The notes under the pieces were generated by a model. It was not told the origin of the DNA. It did not search any database and saw nothing but the letters and a program-made list of their open reading frames with translations. The position numbers and the translations under genes are program-made. Shown piece after piece: positions 12,994 through 40,816 of a DNA stretch of 64,000 bases (its first letter is position 1; each line of letters begins with the position of its first letter). Source of the stretch: an uncultured Candidatus Saccharibacteria bacterium (lineage in GTDB: Bacteria > Patescibacteriota > Dojkabacteria > CAZCSM01); contig CAZCSM010000004.1 in the NCBI GenBank assembly GCA_964501355.1, forward strand, positions 3,340 through 67,339, in the 5' to 3' direction.

Positions 12994-13009
12994 TGTCGTA
13001 ATGACTAAA

Positions 13010-17772: not shown

Positions 17773-17793
17773 TCTTTTATTAAAAGAAGTAAT

Positions 17794-19940: not shown

Positions 19941-20025
19941 TGAACTATAACCAAATAAATGTAAAAATGTCTTACATCAGGGGGAAAAGACTTTGAGGTT
20001 CCGTCCTCAAAGCAACACCCCCATT

Positions 20026-21591: not shown

Positions 21592-21653
21592 TTGACATTG
21601 TTTTTAGTTATTTGCTATACTTTCAGTGTTCAGTTAAGACTTAAGTATTTATT

Positions 21654-22644: not shown

Positions 22645-22765
22645 AAAATTTTAAGACAAATGTTCAGTGAACGCTTAACATATTAAAGCTATAAAACCCC
22701 AGTTCTTGTACAACTGGGGCAAATGATAGAGCAAACAATTAGTTTATTTTAGTAGGACAAACATC

Positions 22766-23941: not shown

Positions 23942-24116
23942 TAAGCATACAGCAAGAACAACATTAGGAACTGAAGCAACTTACATGTCGGACGAGCAAA
24001 TCGATTCCATTCTGAATATGTTTTACTCTTTCGCTGAAGTTGCTTATGAAGAATATACTCGGAAAAGGTTGGCAAATAATACAATAGTAATTTATAATAA
24101 AAATGGAGACTGTTAA
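23934..24116 (+). CDS. hypothetical small protein
   Basis: 60-aa ORF between the Rep-like gene and the serine recombinase gene. It sits where a small recombination-directionality or accessory protein could be, but there is no direct evidence. Confidence 0.2.
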   Translation: MIDKHTARTTLGTEATYMSDEQIDSILNMFYSFAEVAYEEYTRKRLANNTIVIYNKNGDC

Positions 24117-24169
24117 ATAAGCAAGGGCTGCCAGAACAACTGTTCAGGTTGTTTTGATTTAGGGGGTAT

Positions 24170-25744
24170 TTGCTCTGTCCTTGCGACAGTCTCCAAAATG
24201 CAGATGCCCCCTTAGTCATATTTGGCATTATGGATAAACCAAACGCAATTTTATACACGAGAGTATCCTCAGAACGACAAGTTGAAAACACTAGTCTTGA
24301 TGAGCAGGAAAAATATGGTAAGCAATATTGTGATAAAAAAGGACTCCATCTAGTGAGTGTTTTCCGAGAAGAAGGAGAATCGGCCAAGACGGACGATAGA
24401 ACACAATTAAAAAACGCACTTGCATATTGTTCTTCAAAAAAGAATGATATTAAATTCTTCCTAGTTTATCGGTATGACAGATTTTCCCGTTCTGTAGAAC
24501 ATCACCATAGTCTCAAAGCCGCACTAAGTAATTGGGGGGTTAGAGTAGTCTCGATGACTGAAGAAGTTGATGACTCTCCAGAAGGTAAGTTTCTCGAAAA
24601 CATTCTTGCCGCAGTTGCACAACTAGATAATGACAATCGTTCTGTTAAATCAAGCAATGGAATGAAGGCTATTTTGGAACAAGGACTCTGGCCATTTCCC
24701 CCACCCTACGCATACATAAAAGGCAAAGAAAACATCAACAAAGTAAACCCTCTTATTCCCGACCCAGAAAGATTCGACCTAATCAAAAAGGGATGGCAAA
24801 TGATGCTAACAGGAAGATACAAAAGCGTAGAAATCGTAAAAGAGCTTAATAATCAAGGATGTACGACAAGAACTGGGAAAAAGATGACTGAGGGACTAAT
24901 ATCCAGAGTGTTTAATAATCCGTTCTATGCAGGACAAATAAACTGCCCTAAATTTAATATTAAGGAAATTGAAGGGAAACACATGCCAATGATTAGCATT
25001 GAAGAGTTCTACAGAGTCCAAAAAATTATCAGTGACCAATCAACATCAAAGAAAGTTCCTCATAGCAAATATAATCCCGATTTTCCTCTCAATAAGATAA
25101 TATACTGCACGCACTGCGGAAGAGTTCTAACAGGAAGTTGGGCAAAGAAACATCTGGGACTTGGTTATTATAGATGTCTAAATTCAGAATGTAATAACAG
25201 AGACGGCAATAGTAAGGATGGTATTGAAGAAAGCTTTATAGAATTACTTAGAAGAATTAAGCCAACTGAAAAGCTACAACAACTATTTAGATTGGTGGTA
25301 AAAGACGTTTTTGAAAATAAGTTATCAGAGAAAGTTTCTTCCAAAAAGACAATCGAACAAAATCTACGAAAACTTGAAGAACAGAAGGTAAGAATTGAAG
25401 AACTATTGGAACAAGGTGTTTATGATGTTGATAAATATCGACTGAAGATATCAAAAATCTCACCAGAAATAGAAACTCTGAAGATTAACATATCTGAAAC
25501 AAACATAGAGATTTACGACCTTGAAACCTATGTGAATTACGCACTTCAATTTATTAACAATTTACCAGACTACTGGTTACAACTTCCGCCAGAAGCGAAA
25601 CATAAACTTAATTGGGCGATTTTCCCTAAAGGGTTAAAGATTCAAAATGGGAAAGTTACAACCGACGAATTAGCCAGTATTTATACAGATATTCAGGAGA
25701 TTGCGAAGCATAGGGTTACAAATGGTGGGCCTTCTGAGATTTGA
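24170..25744 (+). CDS. large serine recombinase (resolvase/invertase catalytic domain + recombinase domain + zinc ribbon)
   Basis: N-terminal catalytic domain with AILYTRVSSERQ (catalytic Ser) and FLVYRYDRFSRS. Recombinase domain and a Cys-rich ribbon (CTHCGR...C...C). C-terminal coiled coil. The likely start is the internal MDKPNA. The 3' end overlaps the tRNA by 22 nt. Confidence 0.8.
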   Translation: MLCPCDSLQNADAPLVIFGIMDKPNAILYTRVSSERQVENTSLDEQEKYGKQYCDKKGLHLVSVFREEGESAKTDDRTQLKNALAYCSSKKNDIKFFLVYRYDRFSRSVEHHHSLKAALSNWGVRVVSMTEEVDDSPEGKFLENILAAVAQLDNDNRSVKSSNGMKAILEQGLWPFPPPYAYIKGKENINKVNPLIPDPERFDLIKKGWQMMLTGRYKSVEIVKELNNQGCTTRTGKKMTEGLISRVFNNPFYAGQINCPKFNIKEIEGKHMPMISIEEFYRVQKIISDQSTSKKVPHSKYNPDFPLNKIIYCTHCGRVLTGSWAKKHLGLGYYRCLNSECNNRDGNSKDGIEESFIELLRRIKPTEKLQQLFRLVVKDVFENKLSEKVSSKKTIEQNLRKLEEQKVRIEELLEQGVYDVDKYRLKISKISPEIETLKINISETNIEIYDLETYVNYALQFINNLPDYWLQLPPEAKHKLNWAIFPKGLKIQNGKVTTDELASIYTDIQEIAKHRVTNGGPSEI

Positions 25745-25799
25745 ACTCAGGACCCCTGCTTTATAAGAACAGTGCTCTCACCAACTGAGCTAAAGGCCC
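25723..25799 (-). tRNA. tRNA with anticodon TAT (tRNA-Ile, AUA-reading)
   Basis: The reverse complement is GGGCCTTTAGCTCAGTTGGTGAGAGCACTGTTCTTATAAAGCAGGGGTCCTGAGTTCAAATCTCAGAAGGCCCACCA. It has a 7-bp acceptor stem, a canonical D-arm and T-arm, the anticodon loop CTTATAA with U33 and A37, and an encoded CCA. Confidence 0.6.
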
Positions 25800-25877: not shown

Positions 25878-28334
25878 CTAGAAAGGACTTGGCGGCGGTG
25901 TCAAATCGGGACCTGGAGTCGATTCTTCTTCCGCACCTCGCTGTGCCATCTCAGCTTCCACAAGCTCTCTATCACGACCATATCGAAGACGAGACAACTG
26001 CCTGATCATCTCAGCTGTTTTCTTGTCCGAAGGGAAACGACTCTTATCAAACCAAGTTGAGATAGAAAATGGTGTTGGATATTCACTATTTATTAATAAT
26101 TTTACGTAAGCATTCACATTCTCCAAGTTAACAAGATCATTCTCATCAAAGACCGGATAAAATTCGTTTTTCAAGTACTGGGCATCGTTAACACCAACCT
26201 TGAAACTGACGATTGAACCAATGTTACCAAAAACGGCATCTCGGATTTTCTCCTGAACCTGAGAAATGTACTGGTTTGCAACGATGAGGCCCAGCCCATA
26301 CTTTCTAGCCTCTGACAAAATCTGTGCGAAATCTTCCGTCGCGAAATTCTGAAACTCATCAACGTAAAGGAAGAAAGGTTTTCGGTCCTCTTTGTCAATG
26401 TCAGCACGACTCATGGCCGCAGACAGAATCTTCGGAACAATTAAGAGACCCAGGAACTGTGCATTCTCTTCACCAATAATTCCTTTTGAAAGATTAATTA
26501 ACAATATCTTCTGCTCATCCATCACCTTTCTAAAATCAAAAGATGATTTTGACTGACCGATGATATTTCGCATTAATTTGTTCGTTACGAACCTATCAAA
26601 CTTTGAAACAATATATCCCAGAATTTCGGATTTATGATATTGAGCGGTCTGCGCCTGTTCTTCCGTCCAATATTGTTTAACCATTTCATCTTTTATTTTC
26701 GGGATGAGTTTATCGACAAACTTTTGGGAAATCAGTATTCTTACAACTTCGACAAGTGTATATCCCTCTCCCGCCTCCATGGCGGTTAACATAGCATTTC
26801 TGACAGCACGTTCTAATCTCGGGCCAACAATACCCTGGCCATTCGGGTCAAAAAGTTTAATAAGAAGTCCGATAAATGCATTTACAACGCGATGTCGATC
26901 CTGCTCGTTATATGCTTCCATAATATTGAAAGCAACCGGTCTCTCGGTGTCACTCGGATCAAAAACGATTACATCCTCTATTCTTTCAGGAGGAATTCTA
27001 TCCATTATCCACTCGATAGCATCACCATGAGGATCCATGAATGCAACACCGTTGCCATTCATAATATCCTGAAGAGCCATACTCTGGATAAAGTATGATT
27101 TGCCGGAACCAGTCTTACCAACAACATACATATGTCGAAGACGATCCTCTACATTATCAAAGTAAACAGATCGCTCTTTTCCTCGATAGATATTCGTTCC
27201 CAGCCAAATTGAACCCTCATCGGGAACTTCTGCCGCTGCCGGAGCACGTTTCGACTTTAACCAGTGAATGTTCGGGACAGTAATCTCCTTATTAGGTAAG
27301 TGAAATATCGTCGCTAATTCATCAACGGTTAGAACGGAAGCCTGTTTTGCATTAGGATATCGAAATAGAAAATCAAACACGAACTGCTTTCTCTCCCAAG
27401 GCATCAACTTCTTGAACTTATACTTGGAGAATTTATTCATGTTTGGGCGAGAGAACTGCTCAAATGTACCAATCAAGTTGCTTAATAAGGTTTTCGACAC
27501 AGCTTTTGATTGTCCAACTGCAACTAGTCTTACATTCGTTGCAAACCCTGTCTTTGAACACTTCATTTCAATTCCTCTTAAGACATCTTCGGGAACATTA
27601 ATGTTCTTTTTTTCAGGATCAGAATTATAGTCTTTAACTTTATTCAAATACCCAATACCCGCATCTCGCCAAGTATCCGAAGATGGTGTTATTAATATCT
27701 GTACTGCAGTGGACTCACCTTCCGTCAGCTTGCTCATTGAGGTGAATATTGCACCAACGCCATCGATTGCCAGCTCATTATATGTTTGAATTGGATAGTG
27801 ATTATCCTTCTTTAATTTTAAACTCTCAAATGAAACAGAAGCTCCTTCGGAAAAGATATTATATTCATCGGTGATAACAACCTCGGATGGAGGATATGAA
27901 CCAAGAATCTGTTTCTCAACAAGTTCCTTCAACTCCTTAGGACAAGAAACGTACATACGAATACTTTCTGGAAAGGCAACAATTTCAAAAGAAATGTAAT
28001 CACTAAGTTTCAGTTTGCCACCCTCACTTATGGATGACAATCCTGAGAACATTTGTTCTGCGGCACTAATCTCAATCTCGTTACTTTGTGCTATACGTAT
28101 TTCAAAAAGAACTGATTCATAAGATCTCTTTTCTCTCTTGTTGTTCATATATGACTTGATTGCCCACAATACGAATCCAATAATTGCGAGGACAATACCA
28201 ATAAATACAACGATCATGAGATAGAAAATCGGATTTTGAGGAATTAGTCCCGTCGGAACGACGGGTGTTGAAGTAACATTATTTGTCCCAGTTAACGGGA
28301 CATTGTATTGGGCAGATATTACAAACACGTTCAT
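25878..28334 (-). CDS. VirB4/TraC-like (DUF87/AAA_10, FtsK-HerA superfamily) membrane-anchored ATPase
   Basis: 818 aa. N-terminal TM. Walker A MYVVGKTGSGKSYF at about aa 400 and Walker B-like FFLYVDEFQNF. The size and motif spacing fit type IV secretion/conjugation VirB4-class ATPases. A VirD4/TraG coupling protein is not excluded. Confidence 0.55.
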   Translation of the reverse strand: MNVFVISAQYNVPLTGTNNVTSTPVVPTGLIPQNPIFYLMIVVFIGIVLAIIGFVLWAIKSYMNNKREKRSYESVLFEIRIAQSNEIEISAAEQMFSGLSSISEGGKLKLSDYISFEIVAFPESIRMYVSCPKELKELVEKQILGSYPPSEVVITDEYNIFSEGASVSFESLKLKKDNHYPIQTYNELAIDGVGAIFTSMSKLTEGESTAVQILITPSSDTWRDAGIGYLNKVKDYNSDPEKKNINVPEDVLRGIEMKCSKTGFATNVRLVAVGQSKAVSKTLLSNLIGTFEQFSRPNMNKFSKYKFKKLMPWERKQFVFDFLFRYPNAKQASVLTVDELATIFHLPNKEITVPNIHWLKSKRAPAAAEVPDEGSIWLGTNIYRGKERSVYFDNVEDRLRHMYVVGKTGSGKSYFIQSMALQDIMNGNGVAFMDPHGDAIEWIMDRIPPERIEDVIVFDPSDTERPVAFNIMEAYNEQDRHRVVNAFIGLLIKLFDPNGQGIVGPRLERAVRNAMLTAMEAGEGYTLVEVVRILISQKFVDKLIPKIKDEMVKQYWTEEQAQTAQYHKSEILGYIVSKFDRFVTNKLMRNIIGQSKSSFDFRKVMDEQKILLINLSKGIIGEENAQFLGLLIVPKILSAAMSRADIDKEDRKPFFLYVDEFQNFATEDFAQILSEARKYGLGLIVANQYISQVQEKIRDAVFGNIGSIVSFKVGVNDAQYLKNEFYPVFDENDLVNLENVNAYVKLLINSEYPTPFSISTWFDKSRFPSDKKTAEMIRQLSRLRYGRDRELVEAEMAQRGAEEESTPGPDLTPPPSPF

Positions 28335-28340
28335 ATTATA

Positions 28341-28790
28341 TTAACTTACTTTTTCCATCACTCTCGCAAGCCAAATCTTTAACCAATCATCTGACTTTTC
28401 TAAATCTATTTTAGTTGAAACACCTAAATTATCAAGGATCCTTTTCGGAATTTGATAACCATAATATTTAACGGGGACACCAGAGTCATCATCGTCGTTA
28501 TCGTCATTTGCAGCCATCGCAGCATCATCTGCTGCAGCTGCAGCGGCGGCACCAGTTTTCTGAACTTCACCACGTTCTCTTTCTAAATCTTCCTTATATT
28601 TCTCTATCTGACCCAAAACAGCAGCTTCTGGAGTTTGACGGATTTTAATTTCTCCATAAACATCTTCTTCCGTCTTCTCCATAGACCCCAACTGCTCAGC
28701 CAAGAGCTCAGGATCTAAATCTGGAGATATGACATCCTCAGATTCGATTTTCTTTTTTTGTAAAGTTTCCTCCGTGGGCTTTGCTATCAT
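28341..28790 (-). CDS. hypothetical acidic protein
   Basis: 149 aa with a poly-Ala/Asp low-complexity centre. Lies immediately downstream of the VirB4-like gene. Confidence 0.3.
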   Translation of the reverse strand: MIAKPTEETLQKKKIESEDVISPDLDPELLAEQLGSMEKTEEDVYGEIKIRQTPEAAVLGQIEKYKEDLERERGEVQKTGAAAAAAADDAAMAANDDNDDDDSGVPVKYYGYQIPKRILDNLGVSTKIDLEKSDDWLKIWLARVMEKVS

Positions 28791-28858
28791 GGTTTATACG
28801 TTTAATATCACACAAAAAAATTGTACCACATTAGAAAAATTTTAACTACATGTTAAAA

Positions 28859-29317
28859 TTAAGAGACTCCCTTCAGCTCTCTTTTGAGATCAAGTTTTTG
28901 ATCTTCCGCTTGTAAATGTTTCTTCTTTCCTGCTATTTTTCGTCCTTTCCCCAGCCCGATTTTCACCTTTATTAGAGAACCCTTCAAATATACGGATAAA
29001 GGAACTATTGCACATCCCTCTTGAGCTACCTTAAGAAATAGATCCTCGGTTTCTTTTTTCTTTAACAGTAATTTTCTCGAACGCGCGGGATCATAGTCGC
29101 TCAAAGTATCACCCTTCCACTTGGAAATATTAGCATTTATTAAAAACAAAGAACTTCCTATCGGCTTGACGTAGCTTTCCTTTAGGTTGATTTTACCTTC
29201 TTTAATGGATTTAACTTCACCGCCGGAAAGAACAATCCCCGTCTCTATCTCATCAAGAATTTCGTAATTGAAAAAAGCTTTTTTATTCCGCGCAAGAGTC
29301 TTACTCATCGATGTCAA
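28859..29317 (-). CDS. smpB: SsrA-binding protein
   Basis: KKAFFNYEILDEIETGIVLSGGEVKSIKEGKINLKESYV and the C-terminal basic tail match SmpB. Confidence 0.85.
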   Translation of the reverse strand: MTSMSKTLARNKKAFFNYEILDEIETGIVLSGGEVKSIKEGKINLKESYVKPIGSSLFLINANISKWKGDTLSDYDPARSRKLLLKKKETEDLFLKVAQEGCAIVPLSVYLKGSLIKVKIGLGKGRKIAGKKKHLQAEDQKLDLKRELKGVS

Positions 29318-31448
29318 TTTCTATTATTCTGAAACCATCAAGTATATACAACCTATTGTTTGCGACGTCAACTGCAACTTCTTTCAAATCGTTAAAGAAA
29401 CGTTCTTCTCCCTCTTGAACAGCAAACTGTTTCTCCATCTTGAAAAGAACAGAACCACCTTCCGGTTGTTTAAGTAAAACAACCCTTCTTCCAGCTCTAT
29501 CTAATATAATTGCATACGAGTAGGCAAACAAATCGAATTTTCCTGTGTCGGTTAACTCGCCAACTTCATCGCTAATTTCAATATTATCTTCAAATCGCAT
29601 GAAATTCCCACCATCTCCTAATGTATATATTACATGAGTAATTTCGATATCTTCAGCATTTGAAAACAGAGGATCCTCAGCTCGGACCTGTGGATATGAA
29701 AATCCTGAACCGACGGGAGAAGACTTTTTTACTTTGCTTTCACTTGAGACAAGAAAATATAAAGAACCGTCATTTTCATAAACCGCAATTTCGGTGACAT
29801 CACCAAGAGTTGTTGGATTTAGTCCCGTAACTGAACTCAAGGTATATGAACCGTCATCTCCTTTTTTCGCAGAAAACAAGCCCTCTTCCGCATCGTAAAT
29901 GTATAGAGTATCATCAATTGCCTCCAAATATGCGGGTTTGCTTAATCCATCTGCTCTACCAAAAACGGCTGTTGCAGTTCCATCTGAAGGAGACACACGA
30001 TAAACAACACTAGAATTTGAATCGGACACCCATAAGTTATTGTCAAAAAGTATCAAATCATCAAGTTCTGCGTTTTCATACTCAATCTTTAAATCCGCTA
30101 TAACATTTGGATCCGCAAGCCTGACCCTTTTCTCTATCTGATCAACAATAACTTTTGCTTCAATAGCTAATTGATTAGCGCTGTTATTCTCGACTTCAAA
30201 ACCGGAAAGCTTTTCTGCATCAGTGATTACTCCCAATAGCATATTTCGAGATTCACCAGCATTATACGAAGCCATCGATGTCGCCTCCGATAATGTATTC
30301 TCGATTCGGGAATACTCGGCGGTATAATGTTCCTGAAGTTCGCGTGTAGCATTTTCCGATTTAATCCACCGCACACTTAAAAACAGTCCTACTCCAAAAA
30401 GAATAATACAAACTATCAACAGAATTCTTCGGAACTTTAACCTTTGAGTACTTTCAGTTTTATATTTTGATCTACCGCCGAAACCTACAATCGTCTCGAA
30501 AACCCAAGACCCTACAGAACCAAGTATACGAACAAATTTTGATAATGCTTTTTTTAGAAAAGGAAGAACACTTGTCCGGAAAATTGTAGAAGCATTTGAT
30601 AAAGCAGACTTAAATCGAGATTCTTCCCCGATCATAGGAACCCCCGAATCCTCACCCACCTCTTCTAACTCATATTGAAAATCTTCGTCAACAACCATTT
30701 CCTTCAAATCATCTTCCGGCAAATCAACGTTCTCTTCTTCAGCGACATCGACTGTAGACATGTCCTCCTCCTCCGTAATAACCTCTCCACTCTCTTCTTT
30801 ATCATCATCCTCAGATTCCTCTTGCTCGGGGACACTGATACCTTCTTCAATATCATCAACAGCATTAGCAAACTCCTCGACAGAAACCTTATCGCCTATA
30901 ACCATAGAGAAGTTCTCTAGAATTTGATTAGCAGAAGTTTCAAAACCCGCAGGAAAGTATAAGACGGAATTAGGAGACAATAGAAATAAGTCAGCACCAC
31001 CTACTTTTCCACTAATGACCTTTATAGATGCATCTTCCACCAGCGAAGAAAAGTTCAATATCTTCTCCCCTCTCCCCATATAACAGCCGGATTTCCCTAA
31101 CAAACCGATGTAGACATTTTCCCCCAGGAAAAGCAAAATACACACTCTAACGGAGAGACTATCATCATACTCTGCACCTTCTGAAGTGAAAACTGTCTTG
31201 CTGGAATCTTTGAGTTGATGCAATATTGAATCTAAGAGCTTAATTCTATCATCCTCAACTGAATTCATGACAAGATCCAAGGCAGATTGAGAGAGATATT
31301 TCCCTATCTTTTCCAGATCTAATTTATCATTATCTAGGTGGATGACACCGAAGACCCCTCCTCCACTCCATGTTTTGGAAAATGGGATGGAACGCTGATT
31401 TGCAAGACCATCTTTGAGTTCAAAGACTTGGCTTTTCAGATTTAACAT
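29301..31448 (-). CDS. hypothetical bitopic membrane protein (central TM; C-terminal beta-rich, propeller-like domain)
   Basis: 715 aa with a TM near aa 330-350. The C-terminal half has a repetitive beta-strand pattern (YIYDAEEG..., LYFLVSSE..., LYILDGF...). Confidence 0.4.
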   Translation of the reverse strand: MLNLKSQVFELKDGLANQRSIPFSKTWSGGGVFGVIHLDNDKLDLEKIGKYLSQSALDLVMNSVEDDRIKLLDSILHQLKDSSKTVFTSEGAEYDDSLSVRVCILLFLGENVYIGLLGKSGCYMGRGEKILNFSSLVEDASIKVISGKVGGADLFLLSPNSVLYFPAGFETSANQILENFSMVIGDKVSVEEFANAVDDIEEGISVPEQEESEDDDKEESGEVITEEEDMSTVDVAEEENVDLPEDDLKEMVVDEDFQYELEEVGEDSGVPMIGEESRFKSALSNASTIFRTSVLPFLKKALSKFVRILGSVGSWVFETIVGFGGRSKYKTESTQRLKFRRILLIVCIILFGVGLFLSVRWIKSENATRELQEHYTAEYSRIENTLSEATSMASYNAGESRNMLLGVITDAEKLSGFEVENNSANQLAIEAKVIVDQIEKRVRLADPNVIADLKIEYENAELDDLILFDNNLWVSDSNSSVVYRVSPSDGTATAVFGRADGLSKPAYLEAIDDTLYIYDAEEGLFSAKKGDDGSYTLSSVTGLNPTTLGDVTEIAVYENDGSLYFLVSSESKVKKSSPVGSGFSYPQVRAEDPLFSNAEDIEITHVIYTLGDGGNFMRFEDNIEISDEVGELTDTGKFDLFAYSYAIILDRAGRRVVLLKQPEGGSVLFKMEKQFAVQEGEERFFNDLKEVAVDVANNRLYILDGFRIIEIDIDE

Positions 31449-31457
31449 TGGCAGTTA

Positions 31458-31673
31458 TTAAATTAGAAAGAATACAATTACCGATCCAGCTGCAACAACT
31501 GCAAAATGCAGTATTGCTAATAATTTTAGCAGAACACTTAGGTTCGTACCAAGAATTTTACACAAAATTACGACTTGCCGATAGACTAAAAATGCTAAAA
31601 CGGTGTAACCAAACCCTACGACAGCGACTATTGCTTTTGCTATTATTGTCCCAATAAACGTAGTTTCCAACAT
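31458..31673 (-). CDS. hypothetical small two-TM membrane protein
   Basis: 71-aa ORF. An opposite-strand ORF (31448..31657) is the alternative reading. Low confidence either way. Confidence 0.25.
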   Translation of the reverse strand: MLETTFIGTIIAKAIVAVVGFGYTVLAFLVYRQVVILCKILGTNLSVLLKLLAILHFAVVAAGSVIVFFLI

Positions 31674-31739
31674 CCCCTCTAAGGATTAAAATAAGTTTTT
31701 ATCAAACAAACAACTGCAAGAAAGAAATAATTTCATGAT

Positions 31740-32348
31740 TTATTTCTCTTTCTTCAACAATGCAGCCAAATCCATTATCTTATCTTGAACATATCCTGGC
31801 TTTGGAACATTATCAAATCGGAATTCTGCAGTCTCAGCAGCCGTTTGAATTTTCACGGTACCGAAATCAAAAAGATTTTGCCAAAGTCCAAAGTGACCAG
31901 ACGAAACATCCTCAATATTCGAAAGAGAAGCTTCACTGATTTTGTGGTTTAACAAGCCGTAGAAATCCAAGTCCAAAATTCTATCACTCGTAATAATATA
32001 TACATTAAAGTACCATTTTAAAAACTGCATTAATGTATACGTCGAAAGAACAATGTACCAGCCCACCCAAGCACATACTAAGTATGAGAAAGGGAATAGA
32101 TCAGAATCAGTTGGCAAAGTACTAAGAACAGCGACAATAACAAAGGGAATTACGAGTCCAATTAATAAGTTGAAAACCCAGGGTAAATTGACTGCCCAGT
32201 GTTGACGAAGAAGAATGTACACGTCCTCATCGTCATTCTGACTTTCAAATCGCACACTTTTCGGAAGTAGCATCATCGAAGCAAAGGCACCAACACTGTC
32301 TTTCTCTAACAGACAGCGCATTTTTTCCTTTGTATTTTTTCTTGCCAT
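31740..32348 (-). CDS. membrane protein with bacterial PH (bPH_2/YdbS-like) domain
   Basis: Two TM helices followed by a ...YIITSDRILDLDFYGLLNHKISEASLSNIEDV block, typical of DUF304/bPH_2. Confidence 0.45.
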   Translation of the reverse strand: MARKNTKEKMRCLLEKDSVGAFASMMLLPKSVRFESQNDDEDVYILLRQHWAVNLPWVFNLLIGLVIPFVIVAVLSTLPTDSDLFPFSYLVCAWVGWYIVLSTYTLMQFLKWYFNVYIITSDRILDLDFYGLLNHKISEASLSNIEDVSSGHFGLWQNLFDFGTVKIQTAAETAEFRFDNVPKPGYVQDKIMDLAALLKKEK

Positions 32349-32408
32349 TATCTTTTGCTATAAAATACCATCTGAAAATATTATACCACAACTATTACAT
32401 TATAATGC

Positions 32409-34286
32409 CTAACTCGCAATAAAATCAAAGCGAGAAGTTTTAATATGCAAGGTCCCAGGAGATCTTAAGTAATAAACATTCTTGAAGCCCTGTGCTGCAA
32501 ACTCTCTAACAGGATAATTTGCACTTTTAACAATAATCGTCGTTGTATCACCAGAATTGTTTTCATATGTTAGAACTTCGGATATTGTTCCAATCGGTGT
32601 AACACCCAATTCTATCAGTTTATCAATTACCTGTTGATGCGACCACGTGTCGTCATATCCATAATACAAAGGTGACAAGTGAACATTATATTCCTCACCG
32701 GAAACTTCCATAAGTAACATGATGTTGAATAGGTCCTGGGTTTCTTCATTTGTTAACCAAGGATTACAATCACTTGGATAACTAGCAAATTGCGTACAGT
32801 GCTTTGTATTCCAATCATCATTCTTCGCTCCCCAGAATCTGTGGTAAAAAGGAGATTTTGCGTAAGCGCTCCCTTCATAAGGACCGTTTGGACCATAATC
32901 TTTTATAGACTTCATCCAAGGCAGGTTCTGTGCATAATACCCGGATTCAATTCCAAGTTTGGTATACCCACCGGCTGAGGCTGAATAGTATGCGGAGATT
33001 GGACTTCCGCCGGAAGACAGAACCATTCCAGAAGTATCGAGAACCGCTTGATGCCAAATCGATGCCGAGGAATTTTCAACCTTATCCATGTTATAAACCT
33101 GATTGCTTTGGTTCGGCTGAATAGATTTTGTTCCATTATTTGTAAAGGCAATTGCGTATGAACGAGCAAGAATCGCCTGTGCCTTTTGAACCTCTGCTGG
33201 CCAGCTGGAAGGAACTTCCGCTATACCTTTCATATATTTCCCCTCAAATGACATCACTTCATCAACATATCTCCCCTGCTCGTCAGTTCCTTGTACATGG
33301 ATAGTATCCATAGAAGCATATCCGCCAACTAAATCTGCATTGAAATATGCACCTAAAATCTGTTCATAGTTTTGACCGTCTAGAGCCCTACCATAAGCGC
33401 CATACTGACTCATACCAACTCGATGGGGAACTCCGTAGCTAGCTACTGCGAAAGCTCCTGAATACGGAGAAGCGGGCATGTTATATACATTACTTGACTC
33501 AAGAAGTCGTTGGGCGGCAGCTTCAGCTGCCAACTTCGCTTGAATTAACGCTTTCTGTTTTTCCGTTAACGCACCAATATTACTTTCAATAGTACTCATT
33601 TGCTGTCCTAAAGATTGCTGCTTATTCTGCTCTGAGGAAATGCGACTATTTGCACCTGCAATCTGCGCATTTAATTTCTCAATTTCAGAATCAAGATCGG
33701 TATTAACGGCTACCAGTTCATCTTTTAGAAAAACAATCTGCTCTAGATTGGTTTGGAGATTTTCAAGCTGTGAATTTAAGGAAACCAACGTTTCATGATC
33801 GACCTCAATAGCAGATTCCTTATACTCCCAAATCCGCATTAAGCGATTAAAATCACTAACGTTCATCAGGAACTCAAACACTGGAAATTTGTATTGGTAA
33901 TACAAGCTCTGAACTCTTGTATTCTTTTGATCAAGCCTGCTATTTACTAAATCAGAGGTTGAAGAGATCTCACCGTTGAGACTTTCTATACTCTTTTCAT
34001 TTTCTTCTATCTTTGCCCTAATTGCGTTTACCTCAGTTTTCACGCCATTTAATTGCCAGTACAGCGTACCTTTGTTATTTTCTAAATCCTTGAGGTATTG
34101 CTTGCTTGATTCTAAATCATTTTTAATTTTCTCTAATTCCTGATTTTGTGCATTAATCTCTTTTTGGACATCTTCAATCTCATCAGCAAAAACACTTTTG
34201 TCATTCAGTAATAGAGAAGCACCAACGACAAAAGTAAGTACAACTGCAATAATGGATAAAGTTTGTTTTCGTAATTTAACAGCCAT
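32409..34286 (-). CDS. secreted SpoIID/LytB-domain protein with N-terminal coiled coil
   Basis: Signal/TM segment, then a long coiled coil, then SpoIID-like VPHRVGMSQYGAYGRA (the G.GMSQ.GA motif). Confidence 0.6.
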   Translation of the reverse strand: MAVKLRKQTLSIIAVVLTFVVGASLLLNDKSVFADEIEDVQKEINAQNQELEKIKNDLESSKQYLKDLENNKGTLYWQLNGVKTEVNAIRAKIEENEKSIESLNGEISSTSDLVNSRLDQKNTRVQSLYYQYKFPVFEFLMNVSDFNRLMRIWEYKESAIEVDHETLVSLNSQLENLQTNLEQIVFLKDELVAVNTDLDSEIEKLNAQIAGANSRISSEQNKQQSLGQQMSTIESNIGALTEKQKALIQAKLAAEAAAQRLLESSNVYNMPASPYSGAFAVASYGVPHRVGMSQYGAYGRALDGQNYEQILGAYFNADLVGGYASMDTIHVQGTDEQGRYVDEVMSFEGKYMKGIAEVPSSWPAEVQKAQAILARSYAIAFTNNGTKSIQPNQSNQVYNMDKVENSSASIWHQAVLDTSGMVLSSGGSPISAYYSASAGGYTKLGIESGYYAQNLPWMKSIKDYGPNGPYEGSAYAKSPFYHRFWGAKNDDWNTKHCTQFASYPSDCNPWLTNEETQDLFNIMLLMEVSGEEYNVHLSPLYYGYDDTWSHQQVIDKLIELGVTPIGTISEVLTYENNSGDTTTIIVKSANYPVREFAAQGFKNVYYLRSPGTLHIKTSRFDFIAS

Positions 34287-36410
34287 TTACAAATTTATTA
34301 AATTACCCCAAGGATTGTAGTCTTTATGGCAAGTTAGCATGACCACTTGATATTTACTAGAAACTTTCTGCAGAACATCCTTCACGCCCTGCAATCTGGC
34401 TTCATCAAAAGTGACAAAAGCATCATCAACTATTAATGGAGGAGAAGCATCCTTGCAAATAACGGAAAGAATCGCTAAACGAATAACGAAATAGATCTGA
34501 TCAATCGTTCCTTGTGACAAGTATACATCAGGAACTAGCCAATCGTTCTTCTCCTTTGAGAATACCATAAACTGGAAGTCCGGAGTAATCTTTACCTCAG
34601 AATATTTACCATCAGTAAGTTGAGGTAAATAATCCTTTGCATACTCGGAAATTATTGAGCCACTTTGCTTTAAAACCTCTACTCTCGCCTTCTCTATATT
34701 CTCTTGAACCAATTTAAGAATTTTTGATTTCTTCTTGTAATAGTCAAGCTGTTTCCGAACATCATAGATTTCCTCTTCAACCAGATTTAAATCATCTGAG
34801 GTAAATCGAGAAGATTCTTTTTCAACCTTAGCTTTCATTAACGATTCTTTAAGTTGAGATTGCTGTAACTTCAATTCTTCTAACCTACGACTTTGTGAGA
34901 ATTTCTGCATAGGATCTATTCTGCTTGCAACAACTTCATCCGTTAATTTATTTTGCTCAATATCCTTCTTCTCGCTTAAGTATCCAACCTGTTCCTCCTT
35001 CAAGCTACTTATATCTGATGTACCGGAAAGAGCTTTCAGACCAGCCTCATATCCTGCAACTTCAGAGTCAAGAAGATTAATACGCGAGTTTAGAGACATT
35101 AACTCACTCTCCGTTGAAATATTTAGCTTTTCAAAAAGCATCTCCTTCTCCCTTTCAAGATGGGATATACTGTCAGATAACGCTTCAATCTTATCTTCCA
35201 AACCGACCTGTGAAGAGAAAAGATCTTCTCCGAAGAATTTGCCGAAGTATGAATAAATTCCAATACCAATGACTACGCCGATAAACAGAGGAATTAAATT
35301 AAACTGGGTAATAACAAAAGCGATTAGTGTTACAACCGTAAGAATTAAGATGGCGTTCTTCGCAAGACGCTTATTTCGACTTTGTAAGTTCAAAATGCTT
35401 TCCTTTTTCTCTTGCAGCTGAATTTCTATCATCTTCTTTTCGTCAATCTTATCCTTTGTTAGGGTCTTCAATTCAAGAAGACGATTTTCAACATCTTTTA
35501 TGTTTACATCAACCTTTATATCAGCACGTTCCTTTTTAATAAGTTCAAGCTTCGCATCCAATCTCTCAATTTCTCGAATCCTTTTTTCTGATTCAGAAAT
35601 TAAACCATCTAGCTCCTTTAATCGTTTATATGACTTTTCTCTTATTTCATCGTTTTTGAATAATGATTCTAATTTTAGAATCTCTTCTTCTACCTTTTTT
35701 AAATCTTCCTCGGATCCGCCCTTCTCCTTTGTAGAAGTCGAAACTTTTGATACAGCTTCCCGTATTTCGGAAGCCTTGGCTTGTAGTTCCTGGAACCTAT
35801 CAGACAGACCTTTTATCGTTCCTGGGTATTTCACTGGACGATCTATTCCTCTATCCAAATCACCAATCTCTTTCGTCAGTTCTGCTAGCACAGAACCCGT
35901 TTCAACACGCGCGCTCCCTAACAAACTAGAATCTATTGCTTCACGAAGACTTTTAATTGGCTGCTTTTCTTTTGAATTCCCAACTCGTGCAATATCATTT
36001 TGAGCAATTAGAGATGTGAGTATGAAGACCTGCTCACTGCCAATTCCTGTATGTTCTTTTATTAAAGCAGATATTCCTGCAAAATCATTTGCTAAAATCT
36101 TTCCGGAATTTAATTCTTTCAATACCTGAGAACTGTTTTGGAAGTCCTTTTCTAATACAAAATCCTCGCCTTCATTTGAATATTCTAGACGAATAAACGG
36201 AGAAGTATTACCTCCCCAGGGAGAAATCTTATCCAACAGCTTTGAACTCTTTGTATTTGCATCAAAGTAAAGAACAGTTAGTAGCGCTATTAAAACGGTT
36301 GATTTCCCCTGCTCGTTCTTGCCATAAATAACATTCAACCCCTCTTGGAAATCTACAGTTTTCTCGCTAAATCTTCTGAAGTTCTTTAGAATTAATCGTT
36401 TTATCCTCAT
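34287..36410 (-). CDS. SbcC/YhaN-like AAA ATPase with internal TM segments
   Basis: N-terminal Walker A GKNEQGKST (RecF/SbcC type), long coiled coils, a central hydrophobic pair (ILILTVVTLIAFV...LFIGVVIGIGIYSYFG), and C-terminal ABC signature/D-loop regions. Overlaps the upstream SbcD-like gene by 4 nt. Confidence 0.65.
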   Translation of the reverse strand: MRIKRLILKNFRRFSEKTVDFQEGLNVIYGKNEQGKSTVLIALLTVLYFDANTKSSKLLDKISPWGGNTSPFIRLEYSNEGEDFVLEKDFQNSSQVLKELNSGKILANDFAGISALIKEHTGIGSEQVFILTSLIAQNDIARVGNSKEKQPIKSLREAIDSSLLGSARVETGSVLAELTKEIGDLDRGIDRPVKYPGTIKGLSDRFQELQAKASEIREAVSKVSTSTKEKGGSEEDLKKVEEEILKLESLFKNDEIREKSYKRLKELDGLISESEKRIREIERLDAKLELIKKERADIKVDVNIKDVENRLLELKTLTKDKIDEKKMIEIQLQEKKESILNLQSRNKRLAKNAILILTVVTLIAFVITQFNLIPLFIGVVIGIGIYSYFGKFFGEDLFSSQVGLEDKIEALSDSISHLEREKEMLFEKLNISTESELMSLNSRINLLDSEVAGYEAGLKALSGTSDISSLKEEQVGYLSEKKDIEQNKLTDEVVASRIDPMQKFSQSRRLEELKLQQSQLKESLMKAKVEKESSRFTSDDLNLVEEEIYDVRKQLDYYKKKSKILKLVQENIEKARVEVLKQSGSIISEYAKDYLPQLTDGKYSEVKITPDFQFMVFSKEKNDWLVPDVYLSQGTIDQIYFVIRLAILSVICKDASPPLIVDDAFVTFDEARLQGVKDVLQKVSSKYQVVMLTCHKDYNPWGNLINL

Positions 36411-37519
36411 AAGATGTTCTTCCCCTCAAGTAGAGAAACTCCGAATTTCAAAACTTCCGATTTATCCTTCTCGTCTATTTCAGAATCCTTTACGACCTTT
36501 ATGAATCTTCCGATTAAGTAATCATCAGGATATTTATTTTCATCATATGAATCAGCAGAAAGCGAGGTCTTATCTACCAAATTAACATAGAAGAATTCAC
36601 CCTCAATTGATTCCAAAAACTTTATAGAATCGAATCCCACAATGTTTTGCCAGAAACCGGTCAACTCGAGATTCAACACAGCATTTTTATCAGAAACTGC
36701 CAAAACATTATTTGTTAAATCATTTACGGAAGGAATGCTTCCAACATCAATCATCAAATCCTTAATGTATCGCTTTCCTATTTTAATAGTTTCAACTTTT
36801 ACATCATCGCCATCTACTTCAACAGAAAGAACATTGCCGGAACCATTTTGATCCAAAGCAACAAGCTCAGGGGAACCGCAATAATATGCCTTAACTCCAC
36901 CGGAAGAGACATCTAAAGTGTTATGCCAATGTGCAAGAGCAATATAATTCATTCCTGACTCAGAAACTTCATCGGAAGTAATCGGATAATCATCAGGACT
37001 AGATTTACCTTCTATCTGCAGGGAACCATGTGCAAGGGCAATGTGATACCGGTGTGTTTCAACTTTCTCAAAATCAGTAATTGGAGACTGTGTTGATTTA
37101 TTTGTTAGATTAGGCTTTGCATAAAAGACAGTATCGAGTTCAGAAATCGAGAATGAGCCTTCTGAAGGATTCGTAAAGACATGGACCCTATCACCGCAAT
37201 CACTGAAATTATCAACACTGAAAACAGATCCGGATTCTAGCCTATCATGAGTTCCGGGAACAATTATCGTGTATATCCCGGAATCGTTTAGTTTTTTCAA
37301 TAATCGTTTTACGAAAGAAATTGAATATTCAGAAGGATTGGTTGTGTCAAATAAATCACCAGCAATCAATACTGCATCGACTTTCTTTTCAATAGCAAGA
37401 TCTACAACACTGGATAAAGTGTCTTTAATTTGATTGCGCTGGGATTTTCCCTTCTCCCCTAGCTTTACGAATTTGGCACCAATGTGGACATCTCCAGTAT
37501 GAATAAATCGAAGAGACAT
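36407..37519 (-). CDS. SbcD/YhaO-like metallophosphoesterase nuclease
   Basis: Calcineurin-like motifs IHTGDVHIG, GDLFD and GTHD. Confidence 0.7.
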   Translation of the reverse strand: MSLRFIHTGDVHIGAKFVKLGEKGKSQRNQIKDTLSSVVDLAIEKKVDAVLIAGDLFDTTNPSEYSISFVKRLLKKLNDSGIYTIIVPGTHDRLESGSVFSVDNFSDCGDRVHVFTNPSEGSFSISELDTVFYAKPNLTNKSTQSPITDFEKVETHRYHIALAHGSLQIEGKSSPDDYPITSDEVSESGMNYIALAHWHNTLDVSSGGVKAYYCGSPELVALDQNGSGNVLSVEVDGDDVKVETIKIGKRYIKDLMIDVGSIPSVNDLTNNVLAVSDKNAVLNLELTGFWQNIVGFDSIKFLESIEGEFFYVNLVDKTSLSADSYDENKYPDDYLIGRFIKVVKDSEIDEKDKSEVLKFGVSLLEGKNIL

Positions 37520-37811: not shown

Positions 37812-38234
37812 ATGAACAGAATTCACTTCTGGCAACCGATGTCACCTTTCTGGTCAGATGATTGGGATGAAAAGTTTGGAAGTAATTGGGACCTATCATT
37901 TGAAGACAATGAACTAGATATGTACGAAACAGATAATCTGGTCGTAGTCGAAGTTAAATGCGCCGGATTTAAACCGGAAGATTTAGAGGTTACGCTCGAG
38001 GATAAAGTTCTTTCAATTAAAGGTGAAGTCAAAGAAGAAGTTGAGGAAAAGGAAGAAAAGAAACAATATTATAGAAAGGAGATTAAAAGAAAATCATTTG
38101 CCAGATCCGTCACCTTACCAGTAACAGTAAGACCAGAAGACATCCAAACGGAATTTACAAACGGAATGCTCAAACTAACGATGCAAAAAGTTGAAGAGGA
38201 AAAGCCGAAACAGATTAGAATAAATGTAAAATAA
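37812..38234 (+). CDS. Hsp20/alpha-crystallin family small heat-shock protein
   Basis: Alpha-crystallin domain (VVVEVKCAGFKPEDLEVTLEDKVLSIKGE...). 140 aa. Confidence 0.8.
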   Translation: MNRIHFWQPMSPFWSDDWDEKFGSNWDLSFEDNELDMYETDNLVVVEVKCAGFKPEDLEVTLEDKVLSIKGEVKEEVEEKEEKKQYYRKEIKRKSFARSVTLPVTVRPEDIQTEFTNGMLKLTMQKVEEEKPKQIRINVK

Positions 38235-38314: not shown

Positions 38315-39088
38315 TTAATTTGGAACTCGACAGGCCCGATTCCCCGTTGGTAATACATAACATTCAGTCTCACCTGCATCATACCCCATTGACGGGCAAA
38401 CCCAATTGTAGCAAGGATCTGCAATGCACTCATGTGTAGCTTCTTTACAATACTCTCCCTCAACACAGGCGGGATCACATGCCTCCGGGGTCGGAGATGG
38501 TGTAAATGCAGGCTCACAGTAATTGAGAACACCATCTTGAACACAAGTTTCGTTTGGTGTACAACAAACATTCCCACAGGTAACAAGGTTGTCATCTTCA
38601 CAGGTTCTTTCCCCAGGAGTGAAAGAATTATCGTCCCCATCAGAATCAGAGTACGAAGAACCTGTATATTTATAGTCTTCTATACAAAAGTCTACCCTCA
38701 TGACTCCTTCATCACTAATCCACTTGAAAGTTCCCGATCCTAATATAATCATCTGTAACGTTCCAATTATGGCAATTGCGGACAAACCAACAATCAAACC
38801 AATCACACCATAAGTTAAAGTCTGTTGAGACTGCTGAACTTTTTGAGGCTCAGCACCCGCAGTTGCCCATAGAAAAGCTCCATACATCAATATTGCCAGC
38901 CCTCCTAGAGGAAATACAGCAACAACCATATTGAATACGGACATTATTACCGAAGTTAATTCACAAATCTTCGGAGCGGTTATAGTCGAAGGCGCAGCGA
39001 ATGCTGGCATAACAAATGGAAGAACCAGCAGATAAAAGGAAAGAAAGAAAGGAAATAGAAATTTTATTCGCTTCCAATTAATTTTCAT
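38315..39088 (-). CDS. VirB2/TrbC-like pilin-fold protein with C-terminal Cys-rich extension
   Basis: Signal peptide, then two hydrophobic helices around an AGAEPQK loop (…LMYGAFLWATAGAEPQKVQQSQQTLTYGVIGLIVG…). The ~110-aa C-terminal module has 16 Cys. Confidence 0.4.
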   Translation of the reverse strand: MKINWKRIKFLFPFFLSFYLLVLPFVMPAFAAPSTITAPKICELTSVIMSVFNMVVAVFPLGGLAILMYGAFLWATAGAEPQKVQQSQQTLTYGVIGLIVGLSAIAIIGTLQMIILGSGTFKWISDEGVMRVDFCIEDYKYTGSSYSDSDGDDNSFTPGERTCEDDNLVTCGNVCCTPNETCVQDGVLNYCEPAFTPSPTPEACDPACVEGEYCKEATHECIADPCYNWVCPSMGYDAGETECYVLPTGNRACRVPN

Positions 39089-39252
39089 GTGATGTTTGTT
39101 TCAAATATGCATCAATATGATACCAAAGATTTCAAGAATTACAAAGAAAGATATCGAACATCTCTTTTCATGAAACATCCTACAAAACAAATTCCCGTAG
39201 AATCAAAAACAAAAATGGCGCCGAAGCGCCATTTATTTTCGAAATGAAACAA

Positions 39253-39648
39253 CTATGGTGTAGGAAGTAAAGAACCGTCCTCTCCCAATCTATCTAATTC
39301 GCTTACTCCGAATCCAACTCCGAATAGATATAGCACAACTCGAAGAATAGTGTATGCCAAGATTACAATTGCAAGACCTATTATTGCAGATATAATTTGC
39401 TTTTGAGCTTCCTCTGTCTTTCCAGGATCTCCCGCTGAAGTAACATATTTAATACCAGCATAAATCAAATAGCCTAATGCAATGAGTCCCGCAAGAATTG
39501 CTGCCCAATTTACAAAGGTATTGATAACCTTATCTAACTGAGTTGCAAATTCACTATCATCCTGAGCAAACACAGGTGCTGCAACAAGAGATAACGAGAA
39601 GGCTGCTAATGTTGCACTCTTTAAAACTTTCTTCATAGGATCTTTCAC
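39253..39648 (-). CDS. VirB2/TrbC-like pilin-fold protein (minimal form)
   Basis: Signal peptide (…AAPVFA|QDD), then VNWAAILAGLIALGYLIYAGIKYVTSAGDPGKTEEAQKQIISAIIGLAIVILAYTIL. Two TM helices flank a GDPGK loop, matching T4SS-pilin architecture. Confidence 0.45.
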   Translation of the reverse strand: MKDPMKKVLKSATLAAFSLSLVAAPVFAQDDSEFATQLDKVINTFVNWAAILAGLIALGYLIYAGIKYVTSAGDPGKTEEAQKQIISAIIGLAIVILAYTILRVVLYLFGVGFGVSELDRLGEDGSLLPTP

Positions 39649-39711
39649 CCCCTTAATTAATAGTTAAATTATACAGTATAATTTTGAAAAAACAAACATT
39701 TTCTAAATTAC

Positions 39712-40293: not shown

Positions 40294-40315
40294 TAATTAC
40301 TTAAAAAAATTAAGA

Positions 40316-40798: not shown

Positions 40799-40816
40799 AG
40801 AATATTTACTGAAATA

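Follow-up and report, generated by a model that had tools for sequence, protein, structure and literature searches.

The 64-kb stretch of DNA analyzed here (the window) carries on its minus strand, from position 25878 to 37519, a string of nine consecutive open reading frames (ORFs) that lies near an array of VirB2-type pilin genes and that had been taken, in a first-pass annotation, for a dispersed apparatus resembling a type IV secretion system (T4SS). The nine ORFs span this interval exactly and encode, in order of transcription, proteins of 370, 707, 625, 202, 71, 715, 152, 149, and 818 amino acids (aa); a tRNA-Ile gene with the anticodon TAT comes next (25723-25799, minus strand; ARAGORN, and Rfam with 71 bits). 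Very probably, the string is made up of three modules, i.e., SbcD and SbcC, an envelope module consisting of SpoIID-bPH-DUF5657-NHL with SmpB attached to it, and a small acidic protein together with a membrane-anchored ATPase.

The first-pass annotation had counted twelve genes, several of them overlapping by 4 nucleotides (nt), and had placed the ATPase at the head of the string. The ORF list gives nine protein genes, or ten if the tRNA is counted, a 4-nt overlap is present only once (36407-36410, between SbcC and SbcD), and on the minus strand the gene for the 818-aa protein comes last. The other junctions comprise one zero gap, one overlap of 17 nt, and gaps of 6-68 nt; the 17-nt overlap depends on a TTG start and gives way to a 2-nt gap if SmpB begins at the first ATG. 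Profile searches uphold the earlier domain calls for all genes of the string, the label “VirB4” excepted. As judged from the ORF list, about 82% of the window ORFs of at least 80 aa are located on the minus strand, and the GC skew is negative throughout the window, so that nine co-directional genes are not unusual in themselves. Consensus scans for promoter- and terminator-like sites in the region performed no better than shuffled sequences, and no terminator-like hairpins were found in the intergenic gaps of the string, whose genes may be co-transcribed.

Pilin array, envelope module, and gene order in relatives

Five divergent genes for T4SS pilins of the VirB2 type (257, 131, 193, 160, and 301 aa) are encoded on the minus strand at 38315-41722. 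Their products match PF18895 with E-values from 1.3e-15 to 5.4e-05, which provides the window with one component of a T4SS, and one of them additionally matches TrbC/VirB2 (5.3e-08). Each has a signal peptide and two hydrophobic helices. The distance of about 10 kb that was originally given between array and string is correct for the ATPase gene (10 kb), but the 5′ end of the string is only 0.8 kb away, with a divergent Hsp20 gene (37812-38234, plus strand) in between. The strongest terminator-like hairpin of the region (39213-39234; 9 bp with 5 GC pairs, then a T-run) lies between the genes for the 131-aa and 257-aa pilins and may set differing expression within the array.

The envelope module associated with this array is opened by the SpoIID gene (32409-34286, minus strand). 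It codes for a secreted or anchored coiled-coil protein of 625 aa, with an N-terminal hydrophobic segment at residues 9-27, that exceeds the cutoffs for a SpoIID/LytB lytic-transglycosylase domain (PF08486, 3.8e-12, 47.1 bits vs. 23; TIGR02669, 118.1 vs. 83.3) and for which catalysis is predicted. A peptidoglycan hydrolase of the VirB1 type (SLT or CHAP) was not found with Pfam and NCBIfam, the hydrolase present being of the SpoIID/LytB type, and this enzyme would be at most a functional analogue of VirB1. There follow a bPH_2 membrane protein of 202 aa (31740-32348, minus strand; PF03703, 7.9e-06, 26.5 bits vs. 22), whose family has 498 relatives on metagenome contigs, and a DUF5657 mini membrane protein of 71 aa with two to three hydrophobic helices (31458-31673, minus strand; PF18901, 8.1e-11); literature searches for DUF5657/PF18901 returned nothing.

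The next gene (29301-31448, minus strand) encodes a 715-aa protein that by itself has no match in Pfam and that retrieved only the query itself in a homologue search. A family profile built from its relatives in the fetched loci matches propellers of the NHL type with E-values from 1.5e-11 to 1e-6, among them the Pizza designs (1.5e-11), the sensor domain of PknD (1.5e-7), and TRIM proteins, and its N-terminal part matches PP2C phosphatases only weakly (0.03-0.1). The protein would consist of a cytoplasmic N-domain, an acidic linker, a transmembrane helix (residues 341-359; nt 30372-30428), an extracellular helical region, and the NHL propeller (about residues 460-715; nt 29304-30071). Both the single transmembrane helix and the profile matches agree with the initial description as a bitopic protein with a propeller-like ectodomain. 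Behind it lies the gene for the tmRNA-binding protein SmpB (152 aa; 28859-29317, minus strand; PF01668, 1.2e-44; NF003843, 161.8 bits vs. 130), a housekeeping passenger serving trans-translation that is syntenic with the envelope module; a tmRNA gene next to smpB was not detected with Rfam or ARAGORN.

Gene order was compared in 160 related loci, namely genome loci anchored on the ATPase (L003-L084) and 80 metagenome loci anchored on the bPH protein (L088-L167). The latter were fetched with the bPH protein alone, without reference to the ATPase. DUF5657 comes after bPH in 59 of the 80 bPH-anchored loci, the NHL protein follows in 30 of the 31 with room for it, a co-directional SmpB stands behind the NHL protein in 20 of these 30, and SpoIID precedes bPH in 53 of the 80. 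Where at least 3 kb of sequence upstream of SpoIID is available (19 loci), 16 loci carry two to eight VirB2-type pilin genes no farther than 6 kb from it on that side, 14 of them divergent from SpoIID and 2 in tandem with it; all ten pilins sampled from bPH loci match PF18895, eight of them above the Pfam gathering cutoff. The strongest conserved association is that of the pilin array with the SpoIID/bPH/DUF5657/NHL module. As the adjacency of pilins and SpoIID survives changes in orientation, it suggests selection for keeping the two together. Of the proposed dispersed T4SS-like apparatus, the link between pilins and envelope module holds as far as conserved synteny goes, whereas the nine genes as one system and a general membership of the ATPase could not be sustained. 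The module SpoIID-bPH-DUF5657-NHL is apparently undescribed, widely conserved, and near-universal. SpoIID is not mentioned in the main texts of PMC12102498 and PMC10633639 nor in two supplementary files of PMC12102498, and the remaining module terms are likewise missing where they were searched for in these two papers.

Eight loci (L003, L035, L063, L081, L083, L084, L090, and L125) display what we call the Dojkabacteria-type order, consisting of the pilin array, an optional Hsp20 with SbcD and SbcC (or RmuC, or nothing), SpoIID, bPH, a transmembrane protein of about 75 aa, NHL, SmpB, a small protein, and the ATPase. Homologous pilin arrays occupy the same position in the first six of them, and these six are all the Dojkabacteria-type relatives with a sufficiently long upstream flank; a Xer-type recombinase is encoded 1-6 genes further downstream in L003, L035, L081, L083, and L084. 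In loci of the Levybacteria type (L011, L018, L042, and L054), the ATPase stands in front of SpoIID-bPH-DUF5657-NHL-SmpB. The large majority of the ATPase-anchored loci, from Woese-, Gottesman-, Roizman-, and Daviesbacteria as well as others, possess the ATPase and its partner without the other string genes and with NrdR, a class II ribonucleotide reductase (RNR), and PduO upstream. The pair is separated from the rest of the string in most Microgenomatia, and just 2 of the 80 bPH-anchored loci have the ATPase as a neighbor. The pair of partner and ATPase joins the envelope module only in Dojkabacteria and a few Levybacteria. The synteny comparison that had been recommended with the first-pass annotation yields three separable modules with pilin arrays adjoining.

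The first gene of the string (36407-37519, minus strand) codes for a YhaO-like phosphoesterase of the SbcD/Mre11 type (370 aa; Metallophos, 1.1e-13; TIGR00619, 84.4 bits vs. a cutoff of 77.65), the best full-length NCBIfam match of which is an archaeal Mre11 model. It is followed by an SbcC/Rad50-like ATPase of the SMC type and of the YhaN (AAA_27) kind (707 aa; 34287-36410, minus strand; AAA_15, 1.3e-13; AAA_27, 1.3e-10; Rad50 PRK03918, 4.4e-26). According to its hydropathy, the latter has a hydrophobic hairpin at about residues 349-390, in the middle of the coiled coil and at the position of the Rad50 hook, and it contains no CxxC hook motif; the SbcCD nuclease complex is therefore probably tethered to the membrane. 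SbcD is present in L003, L035, L083, and L125, missing in L063 and L081, and RmuC is found instead in L084. Since SbcCD is swapped for RmuC or missing in relatives, a single system of all nine genes is not supported, and the SbcD/SbcC pair is, by its predicted function, a variable DNA-repair insert outside the conserved modules.

Other genes near the pilins and the envelope module include a ComFC-like gene, which lies near SpoIID-bPH in 18 metagenome loci and which in L107 (13569-14255) combines a phosphoribosyltransferase domain with a double zinc ribbon. A phosphoribosyltransferase domain is also encoded in the window, at 50650-51309. UppS is often situated beside pilin arrays in metagenome loci.

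The membrane-anchored ATPase and its small acidic partner

The last gene of the string (25878-28334, minus strand) encodes an 818-aa P-loop ATPase that Pfam matches, a structure model, and synteny assign to the lineage of T4SS coupling proteins. A transmembrane helix at residues 35-59 or longer (nt 28158-28232) is followed by an α/β N-domain, DUF8128 (residues 75-345; nt 27300-28112), and by a RecA-like domain (residues 376-800; nt 25935-27209) with an all-α insertion (helices at about 477-606). Neither Walker A (GKTGSGKS, 406-413) nor Walker B (DE, 659-660) varies among 50 family sequences, and the ATPase is therefore probably active. Its homologues, named Dojkabacteria or Patescibacteria, amount to more than 1,800 protein matches and more than 600 genome loci and are 50-58% identical across classes; the family of the DUF8128 domain comprises 3,624 clusters at 50% identity. 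Literature searches for DUF8128, and for the Candidate Phyla Radiation (CPR) combined with DUF87, found nothing. One locus (L082, 1092-6160) contains two tandem copies of the DUF8128 ATPase of 819 and 858 aa.

The profile hidden Markov models (HMMs) that had been suggested for classing the ATPase put coupling-protein families above their Pfam cutoffs, i.e., T4SS-DNA_transf (39.2 vs. 20.1), TrwB_AAD_bind (27.5 vs. 20.5), and TraG-D_C (25.8 vs. 22). DUF87 is above its cutoff, too (33.4 vs. 23.2), FtsK_SpoIIIE is below (18.5 vs. 24), and a gamma domain was not matched. Across the 50 family members, TraG-D_C is matched by 49, DUF87 by 42, TrwB_AAD_bind by 36, and T4SS-DNA_transf by 19, with weak matches to FtsK in 10 and to AAA_10 in 7, and none of the 50 matches CagE_TrbE_VirB or other N-terminal VirB4 families. 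The NCBIfam models for coupling proteins score far below cutoff, the best being SXT_TraD (55.2 vs. 366). When the family profile was compared with all PDB sequences, TrwB and DotL alone were found at E-values up to 1e-4 (both about 1e-5), neither VirB4 nor FtsK appeared even at E-values up to 10, and a phmmer search with a canonical plasmid VirB4 did not match the ATPase.

Folds add a second aspect. The AlphaFold (AF2) model of the ATPase has a pLDDT of 88, and the N-domain alone one of 85. In Foldseek searches of the PDB, TrwB is matched over about 420 columns of the C-terminal half (TM-score 0.60-0.65, E 1e-13), while the lowest E-values (1e-16, with about 870-900 columns aligned) belong to TrwK/VirB4 of R388; Cag-beta and DotL are matched as well, and HerA structures reach 7e-13 with a TM-score of about 0.52. 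For the N-domain alone, the top 14 matches are all VirB4 (E 2e-8 to 2.5e-5, TM-scores 0.46-0.50), and the next fold class is clearly weaker.

A tblastn search of plasmids detected full-length relatives of the ATPase on haloarchaeal megaplasmids and on 65-kb plasmids of Bacillus subtilis. On one of the latter (CP120602.1), a homologue of 913 aa, which aligns over both N-domain and ATPase domain (E 8e-44), is encoded upstream of TcpC (3.7e-22), TcpD, TcpE, a separate VirB4 with AAA_10 (1.4e-45), and a polytopic VirB6-like protein. This homologue holds the position of the coupling protein (TcpA) beside the plasmid’s own VirB4, which argues against the ATPase being a VirB4. T4SS channel genes stand next to the plasmid homologue but not next to the ATPase in CPR loci, and no relaxase was seen. 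We conclude that the family represents a coupling-type, i.e., second, T4SS ATPase that apparently keeps a VirB4-like N-domain, and that it is not orthologous to VirB4, FtsK, or HerA. The former VirB4/TraC label is not supported, as sequence profiles and the sequences of solved structures both indicate coupling proteins; the protein falls into the clade of T4SS ATPases and not into FtsK or HerA proper, and pilin arrays are kept near the string in Dojkabacteria-type relatives. In haloarchaea, two neighboring genes code for a DUF8128-like N-domain (about 350 aa) and for a coupling-type ATPase (about 930 aa), for example on the Haladaptatus plasmid NZ_CP085328.1 (L087, 8911-12840) and on other megaplasmids, and there are no annotated T4SS genes near this pair.

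These data render it improbable that all nine genes form one dispersed T4SS-like apparatus with the 818-aa protein as its assembly ATPase of the VirB4/TraC type. Such an apparatus would agree with TrwK/VirB4 as the best full-length Foldseek match, with the VirB4 folds that head the N-domain matches, and with the pilin array kept upstream in Dojkabacteria-type relatives, and a SpoIID-type hydrolase could replace VirB1. However, the ATPase is without the VirB4 signature in Pfam and phmmer searches, its plasmid homologue is accompanied by a VirB4 of its own, SbcCD is variable, SmpB is a factor of trans-translation, and the ATPase is unlinked in most lineages. Nor does hydropathy reveal in the string any VirB6-like protein with at least five transmembrane helices; analogues of VirB3 and VirB8 may be too divergent for sequence comparison.

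The presence of DUF87, the central domain of HerA, together with SbcD and SbcC brings to mind a repair system of the HerA-Mre11-Rad50 type, in which the ATPase would take part in end resection as in archaeal herA-mre11-rad50-nurA operons. The DUF87 match above cutoff and its occurrence in most family members, the matches to HerA structures, and the archaeal Mre11 model as best match of SbcD speak for such a system. Yet SbcCD and the ATPase are linked only in a subset of the Dojkabacteria-type loci and are 6-9 kb apart there, no NurA-like gene was found in the string by Pfam, NF040819 scores 23 bits vs. 970, the N-domain resembles that of VirB4 and shows no HerA β-barrel, the ATPase is membrane-anchored, and TrwB surpasses HerA in TM-score. 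With its SbcCD linkage variable and its N-domain not HerA-like, this highly improbable reading was rejected.

The small acidic protein (149 aa, isoelectric point 4.4, no transmembrane helix; 28341-28790, minus strand) is encoded 6 nt upstream of the ATPase and was recognized as its putative partner by a C-terminal motif and by synteny. Apart from an amphipathic helix at the C-terminus, SDDWLKIWLARVMEKVS (nt 28344-28394), it is of low complexity. In 80 genome loci, the gene directly 5′ of the ATPase usually codes for a co-directional protein of 90-280 aa, the C-terminal helix being the sole conserved feature. Of these 80 upstream neighbors, 31 contain the motif W[LVIMYA]xx[WFLMIV]xx[RKE]xx[KR], as compared with 7 of 1240 other ORFs. 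An HMM of the motif, which like that of the pilins was built from the present data set, finds 39 ORFs; 37 immediately precede the ATPase gene, one is a gene apart from it, and one is fused to it. In the fusion (L067, 9509-12250; CAYMOT010000001.1), the partner is joined in frame to the ATPase in an ORF of 913 aa, and the WLxxFxxRxxK helix runs into DUF8128, replacing the usual transmembrane helix; the fusion may be genuine or may have arisen in assembly. Adjacency and the one natural fusion suggest physical contact between partner and ATPase, and as far as gene order and sequence tell, this pair is the truly universal unit of the string.

Integrated island and further features of the window

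An integrated island directly downstream, at the tRNA-Ile gene, and homologues on Bacillus and haloarchaeal plasmids might suggest that the ATPase pair and the pilin array are what is left of a mobile T4SS, i.e., of an integrated conjugative element. There is very little likelihood of this, given that the same gene order recurs in many distantly related genomes, that identity declines along the taxon names of the hits as fits vertical descent, that no relaxase is present, and that the island is bounded by 14-nt repeats of its own, which exclude the ATPase, and is absent from relatives that keep the ATPase. This candidate was rejected, since the pair seems to descend vertically and is not enclosed by the repeats.

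The island itself, of about 13.5 kb (12157-25732), is flanked by an exact 14-nt direct repeat, CAAATGGTGGGCCT, with one copy at 12157-12170 and the other at 25719-25732. The latter copy shares nucleotides with the 3′ end of the tRNA-Ile gene directly downstream of the ATPase, which is the attachment site. The island encodes a large serine recombinase (24170-25744), a Phage_CRI-like replication protein (22766-23941), and a type I restriction-modification system (hsdR, 13723-16923; hsdS, 17794-19056; hsdM, 20026-21591), and further carries an XRE regulator with an M78 peptidase, an NYN protein, and a YgjP-like protein. A tRNA-Ile with the anticodon TAT is uncommon in bacteria, in which AUA is mostly read by a modified CAT tRNA. 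ARAGORN and Rfam detect only three tRNAs in the window, among them two tandem tRNAs with CAT anticodons (8659-8842), one of which may be tRNA-Ile2 or the initiator.

Close to the latter are a DivIC-like gene (8892-9305) and a Xer-type gene (9346-10281), which in relatives are located a few genes downstream of the ATPase. On the other side of the string, a single-pass protein of 709 aa (44301-46430) with a weak match to Baseplate_J comes after an FtsA/PilM-like protein of the actin fold (46553-47779); a homologous pair of an FtsA/PilM-like and a 709-aa-type protein is encoded directly upstream of the ATPase in CP064982.1 (L002, 5834-9596). Between 47850 and 48720, a small gene for a GIY-YIG nuclease (48061-48354) has on either side repeats that form hairpins. 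Their inverted arms of 45-57 nt are 77-80% complementary, with the core TGTCATTTCGACCGAG / CTCGAAATGACA, and the unit looks like a small mobile or repeat element.

Proposed function and comparison with known systems

The explanation that we prefer, a stretch of three modules on a Dojkabacteria chromosome, is held with moderate confidence, and we infer all of its functional steps. The genes of the string would lie on the leading strand, in a conserved stretch of the chromosome of a Candidatus Dojkabacteria organism (Patescibacteria/CPR), as judged from how the homologues are named. SbcD and the membrane-anchored SbcC/YhaN-like protein would constitute a nuclease for DNA ends. The envelope module would help the Sec-exported, VirB2-like pilins of the adjacent array to cross the cell wall or to anchor in it, the SpoIID enzyme doing the job that VirB1 has in classical systems and the NHL propeller acting as a sensor of surfaces or ligands; that the module works with the pilins seems to us evenly balanced. 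The ATPase might form a hexamer at the membrane, with the small acidic protein as its adaptor or regulator, and might recruit substrates or energize their transfer or the dynamics of a pilus, partnering a T4SS whose VirB4 core would be encoded elsewhere in the genome. A role of the ATPase with a T4SS is plausible but falls slightly short of an even chance.

The main rival is a purely housekeeping reading, according to which the module serves wall growth and division, the adjacency of the pilins is simply inherited, and the ATPase has been exapted, for example as an FtsK-like membrane DNA pump that acts with Xer at division. A number of findings count against the explanation preferred here, and several of them favor this rival. 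Over 82 loci, the commonest neighbors of the ATPase are housekeeping genes, i.e., a XerC/D-type recombinase in 35 (usually convergent and 1-6 genes downstream), a DivIC/FtsB-like protein in 26, NrdR, and RNR. Of the 46 ATPase-anchored genome loci whose upstream sequence extends over 8 kb or more, only the four of the Dojkabacteria type have pilin genes there. Near the bPH module, ComFC-like, UppS, FtsH, RNR, and NUDIX genes recur, and SmpB, UppS, FtsH, and ComFC-like genes all point to housekeeping; SmpB within the module illustrates that kept order is no guarantee of shared function here. The identity of the ATPase across classes is like that of a core gene and far above what is usual for plasmid coupling proteins, and a core cellular role fits as well as secretion. 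The ATPase is a membrane-anchored member of the FtsK-HerA superfamily, and a t4cp homologue in S. epibionticum, which may or may not be a DUF8128 member, was dispensable according to transposon sequencing (Tn-seq), with exaptation being possible (PMC12102498). Furthermore, the likeness of the N-domain to VirB4 is moderate, with a TM-score of about 0.5 and 8-10% identity, and is one of fold as seen by Foldseek. The VirB4 hallmarks AAA_10, CagE_TrbE_VirB, and TraC_F_IV are found in none of the scanned window ORFs, phmmer with a plasmid VirB4 has no match in the 64-kb window, and VirB3, VirB4, VirB6, and VirB8 were not detected in the window or in about 165 loci.

Even so, we regard the housekeeping reading as rather unlikely. 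FtsK_SpoIIIE stays below its cutoff and no gamma domain is matched, the closest sequences and folds are those of T4SS ATPases, plasmid homologues occur in conjugation clusters, and TM7x has an annotated ftsK. Moreover, the adjacency of pilins and SpoIID survives inversions, as the divergent and tandem arrangements of the metagenome loci and the tandem Dojkabacteria type demonstrate, which argues for selection and not for inertia. If the synteny were mere inheritance, the region would be ordinary housekeeping DNA; the locus also offers the competing idea that the ATPase was recruited to chromosome handling beside Xer and DivIC.

The three-module explanation fits the literature on orphan VirD4-type homologues. 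In 2,918 Patescibacteria genomes, 5,713 such homologues were found, only 148 of them near virB4, with exaptation considered possible, and Microgenomatia commonly possess arrays of 2-11 VirB2 genes (PMC12102498). The T4SS of S. epibionticum is essential and has a pilin array, and there is no recognizable coupling protein in its cluster; a T4SS with VirB2-like pilins is among the few machines essential for epibiotic growth of a cultivated Patescibacterium (PMC10633639, PMC12857230). In this context, the locus offers SpoIID, bPH, DUF5657, and NHL as candidate accessory genes that lie near pilin arrays in many lineages, and it clarifies the orphan VirD4-type homologues by an extra VirB4-like domain, a constant small partner, and plasmid relatives in conjugation clusters. 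An extension that we consider unlikely would make the four-gene module a so far unrecognized accessory of the pilus-bearing T4SS that is essential in Patescibacteria, and the orphan ATPase the missing substrate receptor or motor of that system. The ATPase would then be an intermediate between VirB4 and VirD4, because it has kept a VirB4-like N-domain and has a small acidic adaptor.

Among known systems, YhaO/YhaN (SbcF/SbcE) of B. subtilis likewise comprises an SbcD-like phosphoesterase and an AAA_27 SMC-like ATPase with a distinct central region, and SbcE has a role in double-strand-break repair and competence (PMC2811018). The string protein (707 aa) is shorter than YhaN, its likeness to which is that of a Pfam match, and the pair is variable among relatives. 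PknD of Mycobacterium tuberculosis resembles the 715-aa protein in carrying an NHL propeller outside the membrane after a single transmembrane helix, but the cytoplasmic part of the latter is not a kinase, has only weak PP2C-like hints, and is joined by a long acidic linker.

With the coupling proteins VirD4, TrwB, TraG, TraD, DotL, and Cag-beta, the ATPase shares a membrane anchor, a P-loop domain with intact Walker motifs, and an all-α insertion. Coupling proteins usually have two transmembrane helices, whereas the ATPase has one, and compared with TrwB it carries the additional cytoplasmic α/β N-domain (DUF8128) of about 270 aa. Unlike them, it is encoded on the chromosome, seems to be inherited vertically, and shows unusual conservation; in CPR loci it does not stand beside relaxase or channel genes, and the small acidic partner always precedes it. 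The succession of N-domain and RecA-like C-domain is shared with VirB4/TrwK/TraC, whose N-domains are the best PDB fold matches of DUF8128, and the N-terminal transmembrane helix presumably stands in place of the separate VirB3 of VirB3-VirB4; in contrast to these proteins, the ATPase matches no VirB4 sequence family and has a plasmid homologue that coexists with a separate AAA_10 VirB4. For the partner, the pair CagZ-Cag-beta (PDB 8dol), a small protein with a coupling-type ATPase, might serve as an analogy.

A parallel in organism and setting is the T4SS of S. epibionticum (SEML1_0006-0019) together with those covered by Patescibacteria surveys (PMC12102498, PMC10633639). They likewise have 2-8 divergent VirB2-type genes with Sec signals in monoderm CPR bacteria, and a coupling-type ATPase that is encoded away from virB4. 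In contrast, the pilin array of the window and many arrays in metagenomes adjoin SpoIID-bPH-DUF5657-NHL and not virB4.

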